NCBI RefSeq assembly: GCF_050920415.1
Contig: NZ_CP169309.1
Source of the DNA: Escherichia coli
Lineage (GTDB): Bacteria > Pseudomonadota > Gammaproteobacteria > Enterobacterales > Enterobacteriaceae
Length of the DNA: 64,000 bases
Strand: one strand, 5' to 3'
Position numbers and translations under genes: made by a program
Shown: positions 10,586 to 29,383 of the stretch, piece by piece
Layout: every line of letters begins with the position of its first letter
Position numbering within the stretch: the first letter of the stretch is position 1
The notes under the pieces: model-generated
The model's input: only the letters and a program-made list of their open reading frames with translations
Database searches by the model: none
What the model was told of the DNA's origin: nothing

Positions 10586-10670
<85 letters not shown>

Positions 10671-10704
10671 TCTCAAGCATTACATCAAAATTTGAATTAT
10701 CCCT

Positions 10705-10770
<66 letters not shown>

Positions 10771-10789
<19 letters not shown>

Positions 10790-11506
10790 TCACTTTCAAA
10801 AGTTCCTGAAATCCCCAACAAATCCACAATTAAATATTCTGCCCATGCGGGGAAGGATGAGAAGCTTCGACTAAGGTTCGACTCGAGCGCCAGCGAGAGA
10901 GCGTTGCCGCAGGCAACGACCCGTAGGGCGAAGCGCGCAGCGCTGAGTAATCCTTCCCCCACCACCATCACTTTCAAAAACCCCTGTATTCTCCAACGAA
11001 TCCGTAACTGAATATTCTGCCCATGCGGGGAAGGATGAGAAGCTTCGACTAAGGTTCGACTCGAGCGCCAGCGAGAGAGCGTTGCCGCAGGCAACGACCC
11101 GTAGGGCGAAGCGCGCAGCGCTGAGTAATCCTTCCCCCACCACCATCACTTTCAAAAACCCCTGTATTCTCCAACGAATCCGTAACTGAATATTCTGCCC
11201 ATGCGGGGAAGGATGAGAAGCTTCGACTAAGGTTCGACTCGAGCGCCAGCGAGAGAGCGTTGCCGCAGGCAACGACCCGTAGGGCGAAGCGCGCAGCGCT
11301 GAGTAATCCTTCCCCCACCACCATCACTTTCAAAAACCCCTGTATTCTCCAACGAATCCGTAACTGAATATTCTGCCCATGCGGGGAAGGATGAGAAGCT
11401 TTGACTAAGGTTCGACTCGAGCGCCAGCGAGAGAGCATTGCCGCAGGCAACGACCCGTAGGGCGAAGCGCGCAGCGCTGAGTAATCCTTCCCCCACCACC
11501 ATCACA
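10771..11506 (+). repeat. tyrT-operon 178-bp tandem repeats (4 full units starting at 10771, 10949, 11127, 11305, plus a 24-bp partial); rtT RNA/tpr region
   Basis: Each unit starts with the tRNA 3' motif AATCCTTCCCCCACCACCATCAC; exact 178-bp period read from the sequence; copies near-identical apart from the first unit and two substitutions in the fourth. Confidence 0.9.
11391..11480 (+). pseudogene. tpr: tpr (protamine-like peptide) frame interrupted by TAA at codon 6
   Basis: ATG AGA AGC TTT GAC TAA... encodes MRSFD-stop; the same TAA is present in all four repeat copies. Read-through would give the Arg-rich 29-aa peptide I recall for K-12 tpr (from memory). Confidence 0.35.
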
Positions 11507-25954: not shown

Positions 25955-26223
25955 CGTTGACTCCTTTTACAAAGTTGAACATTAAGTGTGGTCAACAATA
26001 TCCACTCTTGCCAAAACATAAGAATTTTCATGTCAGACTCTTCTTAAGAAACGCTAAAACAAACATTGTCTAAACGCATTGCTTATTTTTATGGCCCGAT
26101 GAGTAAAAAATCGACAGCGGGGTAAAAATTCGTAAAATGTTACCGATATCCAGACACTTTCTGTTATTTTTCCTACCTATTTTTTACATTTTCGATAAAT
26201 TCATCTGCAAAGGGATAACCATA

Positions 26224-27324
26224 ATGTCAAATGCTCAAGAGGCGGTAAAAACCCGCCACAAGGAGACTTCGCTTATTTTCCCGGTTCTGGCGCTGGTAGT
26301 GCTGTTCCTGTGGGGAAGCAGCCAGACACTACCAGTGGTCATTGCCATCAACCTTCTTGCTCTTATTGGTATTTTAAGTAGCGCCTTTAGTGTTGTCCGT
26401 CATGCGGACGTATTAGCCCATCGCCTGGGAGAACCTTACGGTTCGCTTATTCTTAGCCTTTCAGTGGTTATTCTTGAAGTCAGTTTGATTTCAGCTTTAA
26501 TGGCAACCGGCGACGCCGCGCCAACGCTAATGCGTGATACGCTCTATTCAATCATTATGATTGTTACCGGTGGGCTGGTTGGCTTTTCATTATTGTTGGG
26601 CGGACGCAAGTTTGCCACCCAATATATGAATCTGTTTGGTATCAAGCAGTATTTAATTGCGCTGTTCCCCCTGGCGATAATCGTACTGGTATTTCCAATG
26701 GCTCTGCCTGTGGCGAATTTTTCAACCGGTCAGGCGTTACTGGTAGCATTAATTTCTGCGGCAATGTATGGCGTATTTTTGCTGATCCAGACCAAAACGC
26801 ATCAAAGTTTATTTGTCTACGAGCACGAAGATGACAGTGATGATGACGACCCGCACCACGGTAAACCGTCTGCCCATAGCAGCCTGTGGCATGCTATCTG
26901 GTTGATTGTCCATCTGATTGCCGTTATTGCAGTCACCAAAATGAACGCCAGCCCGCTGGAGACATTGCTCGACAGCATGAATGCCCCTGTCGCCTTTACT
27001 GGCTTCCTGGTGGCTCTGTTGATTCTGTCGCCGGAAGGTTTAGGTGCGTTAAAAGCAGTGTTGAACAACCAGGTCCAGCGCGCGATGAATCTGTTCTTTG
27101 GTTCAGTGTTAGCAACCATTTCGCTTACCGTACCTGTCGTCACGCTAATTGCCTTTATGACGGGTAACGAATTGCAGTTTGCACTTGGTGCGCCTGAAAT
27201 GGTGGTGATGGTGGCCTCTTTAGTGCTGTGCCATATCTCCTTCTCCACCGGACGTACTAACGTGCTCAATGGCGCAGCGCATCTGGCACTGTTTGCCGCC
27301 TATTTGATGACGATATTTGCCTGA
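26224..27324 (+). CDS. chaA: Na+(Ca2+)/H+ antiporter ChaA (CaCA family)
   Basis: 366 aa from ATG 26224 (MSNAQEAVKTRHKETSLIFPVLALVVLF...); the track ORF begins 29 codons upstream at TTG; acidic DDSDDDD loop. Confidence 0.92.
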   Translation: MSNAQEAVKTRHKETSLIFPVLALVVLFLWGSSQTLPVVIAINLLALIGILSSAFSVVRHADVLAHRLGEPYGSLILSLSVVILEVSLISALMATGDAAPTLMRDTLYSIIMIVTGGLVGFSLLLGGRKFATQYMNLFGIKQYLIALFPLAIIVLVFPMALPVANFSTGQALLVALISAAMYGVFLLIQTKTHQSLFVYEHEDDSDDDDPHHGKPSAHSSLWHAIWLIVHLIAVIAVTKMNASPLETLLDSMNAPVAFTGFLVALLILSPEGLGALKAVLNNQVQRAMNLFFGSVLATISLTVPVVTLIAFMTGNELQFALGAPEMVVMVASLVLCHISFSTGRTNVLNGAAHLALFAAYLMTIFA

Positions 27325-27614
27325 CAGTTATATCTCCTCCGATGACAGAAATCGGGGGAGATAATATAAATTCCTGCTTATTGTATTTCTTCATACTACC
27401 TGAACAGGTCGTTAATCAGAATTGCGAGCCTGTACCACAACCTGCACGAAACCACTGCAACAGCTGTTGAAAAGCCGGAATGTACTCTTTATTGCAAACA
27501 TTTCAGGGATGAAGTGAAGATGAATTGAGACGTAATATCCACACCAAGCCGGCGTTATCCGGTGAGGCGCAATGTTGCGGGGGCTTTATCCCTGGTGGCA
27601 TTGGTTGCTGGAAA

Positions 27615-27681
27615 GAGAAAACCCCCGCACGTTGAGAGGTAAAACCTGACAACAGAACGGGGGCTAATCTTGAACCATCAA
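27615..27681 (-). ncRNA. rdl: Rdl-type antisense RNA (antitoxin), copy 1, approximate ends
   Basis: Minus-strand sequence ...AGATTAGCCCCCGTTCTGTTGTCAGGTTTTACCTCTCAACGTGCGGGGGTTTTCTC matches the Rdl RNA as I remember it; ends in its own hairpin plus U-run. Confidence 0.5.
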
Positions 27682-27729
27682 CAATTCAAGAATAGCCGCA
27701 AAATGTTGTCATTACAACAAGGCGGCTAT

Positions 27730-27837
27730 ATGACGCTCGCGCAGTTTGCCATGATTTTCTGGCACGACCTAGCGGCACCGATCCTGGCGGGGATTATTAC
27801 CGCAGTGATTGTCAGCTGGTGGCGTAACCGGAAGTAA
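27730..27837 (+). CDS. ldr: Ldr-family type I toxin peptide (35 aa)
   Basis: ATG...TAA encodes MTLAQFAMIFWHDLAAPILAGIITAVIVSWWRNRK, a single-TM peptide ending WWRNRK; near-identical to LdrA/B/C. Confidence 0.85.
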   Translation: MTLAQFAMIFWHDLAAPILAGIITAVIVSWWRNRK

Positions 27838-27885
27838 GGTGAAAACGGGCGTCAGGCTGCCGTGATGGCAATATGCGCCCGAAAC

Positions 27886-27919
27886 CGGCCGCAGGGGTAA
27901 CAGCCTGCGGCCCTTTTTG
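27886..27919 (+). terminator. Rho-independent terminator of ldr copy 1
   Basis: GGCCGCAGG-GGTAACAG-CCTGCGGCC stem-loop followed by TTTTT. Confidence 0.75.
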
Positions 27920-28150
27920 TCTTTATCTCTTCTGCAAGTAAATATTGGCAACCCGAGCTGGAAGCATCATCCAGAGCACTCATGAAACGACTGTAACAGC
28001 TGTTGAAAAACCGGAATGCACTCTTCATTGCAAACATTTCAGGGATGAAGTGAAGATGAATTGAGACGTAGTATCCACACCAAGCCGGAGTTATCCGGTG
28101 AGGCGCAATGTTGCGGGGGCTCTATCCCTGGTGGCATTGGTTGCTGGAAA

Positions 28151-28217
28151 GAGAAAACCCCCGCACGTTGAGAGGTACAACCTGACAACAGAACGGGGGC
28201 TAATCTTGAAACCAGAC
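28151..28217 (-). ncRNA. rdl: Rdl-type antisense RNA (antitoxin), copy 2
   Basis: Minus strand reads GTCTGGTTTCAAGATTAGCCCCCGTTCTGTTGTCAGGTTGTACCTCTCAACGTGCGGGGGTTTTCTC, with terminal hairpin and U-run. Confidence 0.55.
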
Positions 28218-28264
28218 ACTTCAAGAATAGCCGCAAAATGTTGTCATTACAACAAGGCGGCTAT

Positions 28265-28372
28265 ATGACGCTCGCGCAGTTTGCCATGACTTTCTGGCAC
28301 GACCTGGCAGCACCGATCCTGGCGGGAATTATTACCGCAGCGATTGTCAGCTGGTGGCGTAACCGGAAGTAA
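28265..28372 (+). CDS. ldr: Ldr-family type I toxin peptide (35 aa), copy 2
   Basis: Encodes MTLAQFAMTFWHDLAAPILAGIITAAIVSWWRNRK; differs from copy 1 at two residues (I9T, V26A). Confidence 0.85.
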   Translation: MTLAQFAMTFWHDLAAPILAGIITAAIVSWWRNRK

Positions 28373-28419
28373 GGTGAAAACGGGCGTCAGGCTGCCGTGA
28401 TGGCAATATGCGCCCGAAA

Positions 28420-28454
28420 CCGGCCGCAGGGGTAACAGCCTGCGGCCTTTTTTG
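28420..28454 (+). terminator. Rho-independent terminator of ldr copy 2
   Basis: Same GGCCGCAGG...CCTGCGGCC hairpin followed by TTTTTT. Confidence 0.75.
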
Positions 28455-28465
28455 TATCCGGCCCC

Positions 28466-28519: not shown

Positions 28520-29383
<864 letters not shown>

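Follow-up and report, generated by a model that had tools for sequence, protein, structure and literature searches.

The ldr/rdl (LDR) modules of Escherichia coli are chromosomal type I toxin-antitoxin units. Their organization, the neutralization of LdrD by RdlD and the ldrX model have been described (PMC4147584, PMC8167048), and a model in which toxin synthesis is coupled to a leader ORF has been proposed for Ldr/Rdl (PMC4147584, PMC8167048, PMC8594479). The experimentally characterized member is ldrD/rdlD (LDR-D), located in the bcsG-yhjV region of K-12. The ldrD and rdlD transcripts overlap, and in K-12 the resulting dsRNA, monitored by Northern blots, is cleaved by RNase III (PMC7373196). 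LdrA is a membrane pore-forming toxin (PMC12643268). Toxicity upon overproduction, and its prevention by Rdl, have been shown for K-12 LdrD/RdlD and LdrA (cited in PMC4147584, PMC7472228, PMC12643268).

In hok/sok modules, found in plasmid R1 and in chromosomal copies, the antisense RNA maps, as in ldr/rdl, to the 5' UTR that precedes the toxin ORF; the toxin, in contrast, belongs to the Hok family, unrelated to Ldr/Fst. The ibs/sib and zor/orz modules are also tandemly duplicated in the chromosome, with antisense RNAs differing at a few positions, and Sib RNAs as well as OrzO and OrzP are reported to repress their cognate mRNAs only. Sib covers the whole ibs ORF, whereas Rdl overlaps the 5' UTR only (PMC8594479). 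Both ibs-sib and ldr-rdl are tandemly duplicated, with lineage-specific duplications and losses (PMC2887945).

The LDR array between chaA and kdsA

The window analyzed is a 64,000-nt stretch of the E. coli contig NZ_CP169309.1. Two direct-repeat families, with start-to-start spacings of 536 and 535 bp, were detected by a repeat search across residues 27377-28455, between chaA (Na+/K+:H+ antiporter; 26224-27324, plus strand) and kdsA (28520-29374, minus strand). Both flanking genes were recognized as ORFs and from the annotations of K-12 and of an identical RefSeq locus (NZ_CP169399.1). The high-identity cores of the repeats, both oriented on the plus strand, span residues 27449-27920 (unit 1, chaA-proximal) and 27985-28455 (unit 2, kdsA-proximal), and are identical at 453 of 473 alignment columns (95.8%); similarity on this scale, 96% over ~470 nt, cannot be ascribed to chance. 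Between units, identity falls to 54% in the 72 bp that precede each core. Each unit is made up of a 35-aa Ldr ORF, an antisense Rdl and a terminator, and tandem units of ~530 bp with K-12-like flanks are the hallmark of the LDR array. A two-unit ldr/rdl type I toxin-antitoxin array had been called here by the first-pass annotation, and repeats, Ldr ORFs and antisense Rdl matches bear this out; the interval given for it, 27459-28455, brackets both cores correctly.

The ldr-1 ORF (27730-27837, plus strand) encodes the peptide MTLAQFAMIFWHDLAAPILAGIITAVIVSWWRNRK (I9, V26, S29; WP_000170956.1), the ldr-2 ORF (28265-28372, plus strand) the peptide MTLAQFAMTFWHDLAAPILAGIITAAIVSWWRNRK (T9, A26, S29; WP_000170965.1). 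The translations differ, as had been noticed earlier, exactly at I9T and V26A; three synonymous changes are found besides. Both peptides match Pfam PF13940 across residues 1-35 (85.3 and 89.9 bits, respectively; cut-off 27). The PxxxG motif, the WW pair and the RNRK tail are visible in both; a signature of the Ldr family has been described (PMC7472228). With 35 residues, a hydrophobic helix followed by a conserved Trp, a charged C-terminus and a profile score above cut-off, both are assigned to the family. A search against NCBIfam gave no model match for either peptide, and is uninformative. On the basis of 91-97% peptide identity, both Ldr-1 and Ldr-2 would be toxic.

The window units and K-12 LDR-A, LDR-B and LDR-C are alike in locus, flanks, orientation, unit length (~535 bp) and internal layout. 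Unit 1 is closest to K-12 unit C (96.4% identity), unit 2 to units B (97.6%) and A (97.3%). K-12 carries three units, the window two, and neither window peptide coincides with a K-12 peptide: Ldr-1 features V26, and Ldr-2 joins T9 of LdrB to S29 of LdrA and LdrC. The architecture of LDR-D is also the same, and LDR-D belongs to the same Rfam and Pfam families; the core of the ldr 5' UTR, as well as the 3' UTR, are nearly invariant in the alignment of the window units with K-12 LDR-D. LDR-D resides, however, at another locus, its ORF is much diverged (pS 0.58, pN 0.24), and it differs in the Rdl apical loop, in the Rdl 5' tail and in the reading frame of upstream ORFs relative to ldr.

The region is, very probably, a two-unit allele of the chromosomal LDR array of E. 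coli, carrying two apparently intact ldr/rdl modules, with I9T and V26A as standing variants. Both the two-unit state and the hybrid alleles would have arisen by unequal crossing-over, and by gene conversion, between units that are nearly identical, the same polymorphisms being reshuffled between units and between strains. As such, the array is real but ordinary, a textbook chromosomal type I toxin-antitoxin repeat, and matters little.

Antisense RNAs, transcription signals and predicted folds

Full-length minus-strand matches to the Rfam rdlD model (RF01813, residues 1-66 of 66; gathering score 50) were found at 27616-27681 (83.6 bits) and 28152-28217 (90.1 bits). The Rdl-1 antisense RNA was placed at 27616-27682 (minus strand), its 5' end being set by analogy with the annotation of rdlA, rdlB and rdlC in K-12, and Rdl-2 at 28152-28217 (minus strand). 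Both are predicted to fold into a single-stranded 5' tail followed by a long terminator hairpin (z = -4.88 for Rdl-1 and -4.55 for Rdl-2, about -4.7 overall). The Rdl RNAs lie on the opposite strand within the ldr 5' UTR, and overlap neither the ORF nor the ribosome-binding site. The gap between the Rdl 5' end and the ldr ATG (27730 and 28265) is 48 nt in both units, as in the K-12 annotation.

A putative Rdl-1 promoter, read by eye, is located at 27689-27717 (minus strand), with a -35 box TTGTAA (27712-27717), a 17-nt spacer and a -10 box TATTCT (27689-27694). It matches the consensus at 8 of 12 positions, below the scan threshold, and is spaced appropriately for the Rdl 5' end; hexamers and spacer include no variable column in 35 sampled units. 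A consensus sigma-70 promoter scan of the array found no site. The ldr promoter and the 5' end of the ldr mRNA are guesses: a TAATAT -10-like hexamer at 27533-27538 and the start of conservation with LDR-D would place the ldr-1 mRNA, ~370 nt long, at 27545-27915 (plus strand). Terminator-like sites were found for both ldr and Rdl in each unit. The ldr-1 intrinsic terminator (27887-27912, plus strand) consists of a 9-pair stem, with 8 G-C pairs, followed by a T run; the ldr-2 terminator, at 28422-28447 (plus strand), was identified by a terminator scan.

With the ends so assumed, the ldr mRNAs are predicted to be highly structured (unit 1, -162.8 kcal/mol, z = -6.35; unit 2, z = -8.43), and the SD/AUG region pairs with the conserved 3' UTR in both MFE and centroid folds of the two mRNAs. 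This predicted long-range pairing resembles the fold-back inhibition of hok. The Rfam sok model matches the ldr 5' UTR weakly, at 27-28 bits, well below its gathering score of 59. A frame upstream of ldr runs into the ldr ATG, where it ends in ATATGA; a TAA breaks it in unit 1 and in K-12 units C and B, and it is open in unit 2 (TAC) and in K-12 unit A; the relation of frame to ldr is shifted by a 1-nt indel in gamma-type units, and by an indel in LDR-D. Conservation of the leader ORF (ldrX) of the published model is not visible in the alignment of the units with LDR-D; in this the LDR units may differ from hok/sok.

The workings of both window copies can be sketched by homology. Each unit would give rise to a long, highly structured ldr mRNA, with the ORF of a 35-aa single-helix membrane toxin near its 3' end, and, from the opposite strand, to a ~66-nt Rdl fully complementary to the ldr 5' UTR. 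Pairing of Rdl would block Ldr synthesis post-transcriptionally, as demonstrated for ldrD/rdlD of K-12, in a way proposed to be hok/sok-like and to act via the leader ORF. Ldr in excess would insert into the inner membrane, leading to collapse of ATP synthesis and growth arrest, effects established with LdrA and LdrD.

Variation of toxin alleles and Rdl regions

The Rdl regions of the two units had been reported to differ at several positions, and they do so at 5 of 68 alignment columns. One change is the middle nucleotide of the apical triloop (27641-27643), which in the predicted folds is common to Rdl-1 and to the mirror hairpin in the ldr-1 mRNA. This residue, 27642, is A in unit 1 and C in unit 2; in 35 sampled units A was found 25 times, C nine times and T once. 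The remaining changes, a 1-nt indel included, fall within ~10 nt of the start of the 5' tail. Here folds, per-column diversity and haplotypes define a hypervariable patch, predicted to be a hairpin loop in the ldr mRNA. Unit 1 carries the gamma type, CCATCAACAA (+1 nt), at 27675-27684, corresponding to the first 8 nt of the Rdl-1 tail and flanked in the predicted ldr-1 mRNA by a stem (27668-27674/27685-27691). Unit 2 carries the alpha type, ACCAGACAC, at 28211-28219, corresponding to the Rdl-2 5' tail, in a kdsA-proximal backbone, and is thus a mosaic. K-12 lacks the gamma tail, which is common in other strains (536, O157:H7, IAI39). The informative-site haplotype of unit 1 is the same as that of unit 1 of strains IAI39, HS4 and 2013C-4282.

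The toxin and Rdl differences had been read together by the first-pass annotation as co-evolving toxin/antitoxin specificities. As stated, this is not supported. Rdl pairs with a stretch of the ldr 5' UTR that precedes the AUG by 48-114 nt, and contacts neither the coding region nor the peptide; I9T and V26A cannot therefore belong to Rdl specificity. Matched differences in Rdl and ldr are no evidence of co-evolution either, because transcription of opposite strands keeps a cognate pair complementary under every mutation. In 35 units from 16 arrays, Rdl tail types are found with Ldr alleles in all combinations, and all four gametes were observed for tail type and codon 26 as for tail type and codon 9, a pattern which rejects a fixed toxin/Rdl pairing. 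The table of informative sites reveals mosaic units, and the toxin allele of unit 1 is found in unit 2 of strain 2013C-4282. The pN/pS ratio is 0.20 for the ldr-1 and ldr-2 ORFs, indicating purifying rather than diversifying selection, and 0.49 over all pairs of distinct sampled ldr ORFs; diversifying selection on the toxins was rejected on both values. I9T and V26A are common standing variants in the transmembrane helix, with no sign of toxin/antitoxin co-adaptation.

A narrower idea survives as plausible, namely that Rdl variants may discriminate between the two ldr mRNAs. In its full form, the units would be insulated pairs, loop and tail differences limiting each Rdl to its own ldr mRNA, and the tail types would be selected specificity classes; this would add to the recombination history of the array rather than replace it, and we regard it as possible but unlikely. 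Equally tentative is its corollary, that the tail types (alpha, beta and gamma, plus those of LDR-D) and the apical-loop nucleotide make up a recognition code, in which recombinants, such as gamma plus alpha, are tolerated only with a matching Rdl in each unit, toxin residues playing no part. Within the transcribed part, polymorphisms of high frequency cluster in Rdl, at 7 of its 66 positions versus about 7 of ~300 elsewhere. The variable sites are the middle of the triloop and the first ~8 nt of the tail, facing two predicted mRNA hairpin loops, and hairpin loops are classic sites of first contact for antisense RNAs. Such a concentration of differences in the recognition elements, loop and tail, is a Sib/Ibs-like feature, found in the Rdl RNAs of the window. 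Yet loops are the sole places free of structural constraint from both RNAs, and pairing in cis is kept automatically; neutral drift plus recombination predict the same loop and tail variation.

Three discrete tail types, alpha, beta and gamma, recur across E. coli strains, loop and tail are also the variable places in LDR-D-type units, whose 5' UTR is otherwise nearly invariant, and two different tail types were found in each sampled two-unit array with extractable Rdl region. On the other hand, the tail patch reflects few complex events, not independent substitutions, and the arrays of K-12, the B strain and H8 hold adjacent units with Rdl RNAs that are identical or differ by one nucleotide of the stem, so that units can coexist without distinct Rdl types. 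Pairing of the tail alone drops from -27.6/-29.2 kcal/mol in cognate to -14.8/-16.4 kcal/mol in non-cognate combinations, but full non-cognate duplexes are still at about -120 kcal/mol, with >55 contiguous pairs, and full-duplex thermodynamics was discarded, as it gives no useful separation of cognate from non-cognate Rdl/ldr. A literature search for cross-repression experiments on Rdl paralogues found none. Cross-regulation or discrimination by paralogous Rdl RNAs would bear on the persistence of tandem type I modules and on their freedom to recombine. For Rdl discrimination, the sampled population offers a concrete, easily tested design, its tail and loop types being discrete and located on predicted hairpin loops; were the recognition code true, tandem LDR units would be mutually insulated toxin-antitoxin pairs.

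Integrity and copy number of the units

Decay of one of the units into a non-functional pseudo-module left by recombination is very improbable. In unit 1, the 5' UTR patch does contain one inserted nucleotide, and the upstream frame is broken by a TAA; defective-looking units are known elsewhere, as unit 1 of O157:H7, with a 6-nt deletion in the Rdl stem, and a truncated unit of H8. Nevertheless, both ORFs in the window are intact and match PF13940 over the full length, both Rdl RNAs exceed the gathering score by far and have intact stems, terminators and the Rdl promoter stretch are conserved, and the low pN/pS between the two copies (0.20) also argues against decay. Moreover, the one copy present in strains such as 536 and FCI5 is of the gamma type. 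An assembly artefact, as a false duplication in tandem or as a third unit lost, is hardly credible: short-read assemblers can collapse or expand near-identical ~535-bp tandem repeats, but the units differ at 20 core positions and in their upstream spacers, and the same two-unit structure is found in many independent complete genomes at 99.4-100% identity, as well as in IAI39, SMS-3-5 and CE10, so the units are not the assembly duplicates considered at first pass.

The presence of three units at this site in K-12 had been stated at first pass, together with the notion that copy number varies among strains. The MG1655 annotation indeed lists ldrC, ldrB and ldrA, with rdlC, rdlB and rdlA, between chaA and kdsA. 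Copy number was derived from match span and the number of annotated Ldr genes in 60 of the 5440 E. coli records, sampled systematically. Three units were found in ~27 records, two in 15, one in 16 and four in one, and one record had none. Coverage of a three-unit K-12 query was rejected as a measure of copy number, being 93-100% even in two-unit genomes, as pieces overlapping in the subject get joined. A scan with exact 22-mers, one genome per species, detected units in Escherichia alone, plus one contaminated contig; it yielded too few units for covariation statistics, and its exact matching missed the copies of E. albertii, E. fergusonii and Salmonella.

The locus, its peptides and the arrangement in two units were known before, and are annotated in many public E. 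coli genomes, the two-unit form being a common strain variant, found also in O157:H7. The 1221-bp locus is 100% identical in one RefSeq genome (NZ_CP169399.1), where two Ldr genes are annotated, and both Ldr peptides are in RefSeq, each on at least 1000 public contigs.

Layout and identity of the array

Between chaA (end at 27324, + strand) and kdsA (28520-29374, - strand), which lie ~1.2 kb apart, a repeat search of the window detected two families of direct repeats, spaced 536 and 535 bp, over 27377-28455. The cores of the chaA-proximal unit 1 (27449-27920) and the kdsA-proximal unit 2 (27985-28455) are 95.8% identical (453/473), the 72 bp preceding each core only 54%. Each long direct repeat (LDR) carries on the + strand a 35-codon ORF (ldr-1, 27730-27837, translated as MTLAQFAMIFWHDLAAPILAGIITAVIVSWWRNRK; ldr-2, 28265-28372, translated as MTLAQFAMTFWHDLAAPILAGIITAAIVSWWRNRK), and Pfam PF13940 (Ldr_toxin) covers both peptides end to end. 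On the opposite strand, full-length matches to the Rfam rdlD model (RF01813, gathering score 50) define the antisense RNAs Rdl-1 (27616-27681, 83.6 bits) and Rdl-2 (28152-28217, 90.1 bits). Strong terminator-like hairpins are found 3' of ldr-1 (27887-27912) and ldr-2 (28422-28447), and Rdl also ends in a terminator-like site in each unit. ORF translation, Rfam, Pfam and the repeat search confirm in every factual detail the first-pass description of the array, I9T and V26A toxin differences included. Mechanical calling gives a chaA ORF of 395 aa (26137-27324, +; RefSeq, 366 aa), its start, 29 codons further upstream, being probably just an upstream in-frame ATG.

K-12 MG1655 is annotated with ldrC/rdlC, ldrB/rdlB and ldrA/rdlA between chaA and kdsA, the three units that the first-pass annotation named, in the same order and orientation to the flanks as in the window. 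The window units are 96.4-97.6% identical to their best-matching K-12 counterparts (unit 1 to unit C, 96.4%; unit 2 to units B and A, 97.6% and 97.3%). The segment 27300-28520 (1221 bp) is 100% identical in NZ_CP169399.1, there annotated with two Ldr genes (WP_000170956.1 and WP_000170965.1), and each peptide, named Ldr, resides on at least 1000 contigs in public collections. Layout, identical annotated locus and widespread peptides identify the locus as the known LDR array; it is genuine, was rightly named at first pass, and is not new. Identity of at least 99% over the 1221 bp is found in 20 of 5426 complete genomes, and the combination of a gamma and an alpha-mosaic unit (types of the variable Rdl tail patch) is uncommon, yet unremarkable.

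Copy number was read from match span and annotated Ldr gene count in a systematic sample of 60 records, drawn at regular intervals from the ranked list of 5440 matches. Three units were found in 27 records, two in 15, one in 16, four in one, and one site lacks the array, so the supposed variability among strains is real. The two-unit form is thus a common allele, made by recombination among the repeats; about one in four sequenced complete genomes would carry it, an estimate exposed to sampling bias in the database. O157:H7, IAI39, SMS-3-5 and CE10 carry two units, strain 536 one. Fozo et al. 2010 (PMC2887945) described how tandem type I loci, ldr-rdl included, have been duplicated and lost in particular lineages.

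Further variation was observed among the compared loci. An IS200C transposase gene separates the last LDR unit from kdsA in several strains, as 19A14 (L009, 1604-2062). In the four-gene array of H8 (L007, 2490-2949) the irregular 352-bp spacing between second and third ldr genes reflects a truncated unit, missing most of its upstream part. The chaA-proximal unit of O157:H7 Z563 (L005) has lost 6 nt (GAACGG) from the Rdl stem, a change expected to destabilise or disrupt the antitoxin hairpin; its ldr ORF is intact. Elsewhere in the window, two tRNA genes followed by four tandem RtT repeats (RF00391, period 178 bp) at 10586-11501 (+) look like the tyrT-tyrV-tpr region, and RtT repeat number may vary between strains as well.

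Toxin alleles and Rdl variable sites

The first-pass suggestion that toxin and antitoxin may be co-evolving specificities is not supported as it stands. With 48 nt separating it from the downstream ldr AUG, Rdl has no contact with the coding region, and I9T and V26A therefore cannot take part in its recognition; moreover, no mutation can cost a cis-antisense RNA its complementarity to its own target. Alleles are also reshuffled. In 14 further E. coli arrays compared with the window and K-12 (16 arrays, 35 units), units are mosaics at 34 informative sites, and all four combinations of tail type with codon 26, as with codon 9, are present. Unit 1 has the haplotype seen in the first unit of IAI39, HS4 and 2013C-4282. 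The backbone of unit 2 is of the kdsA-proximal kind and encloses a tract (tail patch, T9) characteristic of K-12 B/C-like units, and the second unit of 2013C-4282 has taken over the toxin allele of unit 1. The ldr-1 and ldr-2 ORFs differ by 2 non-synonymous and 3 synonymous changes (pN/pS = 0.20), indicative of purifying selection, and the residue differences are ordinary shuffled polymorphisms.

The Rdl regions do differ, as initially noted. The differences lie at the central position of the apical triloop (27642 in unit 1, 28178 in unit 2) and at a 9-10 nt patch (27675-27684 and 28211-28219) corresponding to the initial ~8 nt of the Rdl tail, and forming in the predicted ldr mRNA fold a hairpin loop closed by the stem TCTTGAA/TTCAAGA. 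Among the 35 units, common polymorphisms within the transcribed unit concentrate in the Rdl overlap, and the patch recurs in three discrete types, namely alpha (AAACCAGACAC; K-12 C and B, window unit 2), beta (AACCAGAACAA; K-12 A) and gamma (AACCATCAACAA, +1 nt; window unit 1, 536, O157:H7 unit 2). Tail and loop are placed where recognition elements letting each Rdl repress only its own ldr mRNA would be expected, and tail-only pairing energy falls to half in non-cognate pairs. Such discrimination between paralogues is nevertheless rather unlikely: neutral drift at positions free of both RNA structures predicts the pattern equally well, and a strict requirement is at odds both with full non-cognate duplexes still at ~ -120 kcal/mol and with K-12, B strains and H8, where Rdl RNAs of adjacent units are identical or one stem nucleotide apart. 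No cross-repression test of Rdl paralogues was found in the searchable literature.

Predicted transcript folds and probable mode of action

By homology to K-12, the window modules would act as described there. Overproduction of Ldr, an inner-membrane peptide of 35 aa, stops ATP synthesis and leads to death or arrest of the cells (PMC7472228, PMC12643268), and RdlD prevents LdrD toxicity at the translation level; since the part of the 5' UTR in which Rdl sits is distant from the ribosome-binding site, a route like that of hok/sok, via a leader ORF, ldrX, has been proposed but not proven (PMC4147584, PMC8167048, PMC8594479). In vivo, dsRNA of the ldrD/rdlD overlap that RNase III had cleaved has been recovered (PMC7373196).

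The window Rdl RNAs are predicted to fold into a single-stranded 5' tail and a long hairpin (z ~ -4.7), and the putative ~370-nt ldr mRNAs to be unusually stable (z = -6.35 and -8.43). In these folds, for which transcript ends were assumed, SD/AUG is predicted to pair with the conserved 3' UTR, resembling the fold-back inhibition of hok. Rfam sok (RF01794) gives weak, sub-threshold matches on the ldr 5' UTRs at 27579-27732 and 28115-28267 (+) (27.0 and 27.9 bits; gathering score 59), which fit a T1TAdb remark that one Ldr/Rdl locus is classed as Hok/Sok by RNA features. The upstream frame ending ATATGA at the ldr ATG runs open in unit 2 and is interrupted in unit 1 by TAA, and indels alter its relation to ldr in gamma-type units and LDR-D; as far as these sequences indicate, conservation lends ldrX no support. 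The extra nucleotide of the gamma patch brings TTG at 27670 in frame with ldr-1, creating a 55-aa ORF (27670-27837; MNHQQFKNSRKMLSLQQGGY + Ldr), exactly the Ldr form called in older annotations of 536 and IAI39. In alpha and beta units the equivalent frame stops at the TGA overlapping the ldr ATG.

Comparison with LDR-D-type units

LDR-D, the ldrD/rdlD unit of K-12 (L003), is near-identical to LDR-A/B/C-type units in the 5' UTR core and part of the 3' UTR, whereas the ORFs have diverged (pS 0.58). For the common stretches (window 27560-27640 and 27845-27885), pairing is predicted both between the two and with the start region. The triloop and tail sites are variable in LDR-D-type units too (those of K-12, E. 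whittamii and other Escherichia), in a 5' UTR that elsewhere hardly changes and is better conserved than the ORF. Tandem pairs with a ~484-bp period, found in the E. coli-like genome SCPM-O-B-8794 (L018, 8216-8791) and in Escherichia sp. E1V33 (L021, 3752-4326), indicate that the LDR-D lineage too duplicates in tandem; Rdl loops and tails are unlike between the two copies. The LDR-D-type Escherichia sequence on NZ_JABWSY010000055.1 (L023; 503 bp, coverage 0.66), from an assembly labelled Bacillus sp., is almost certainly contamination.
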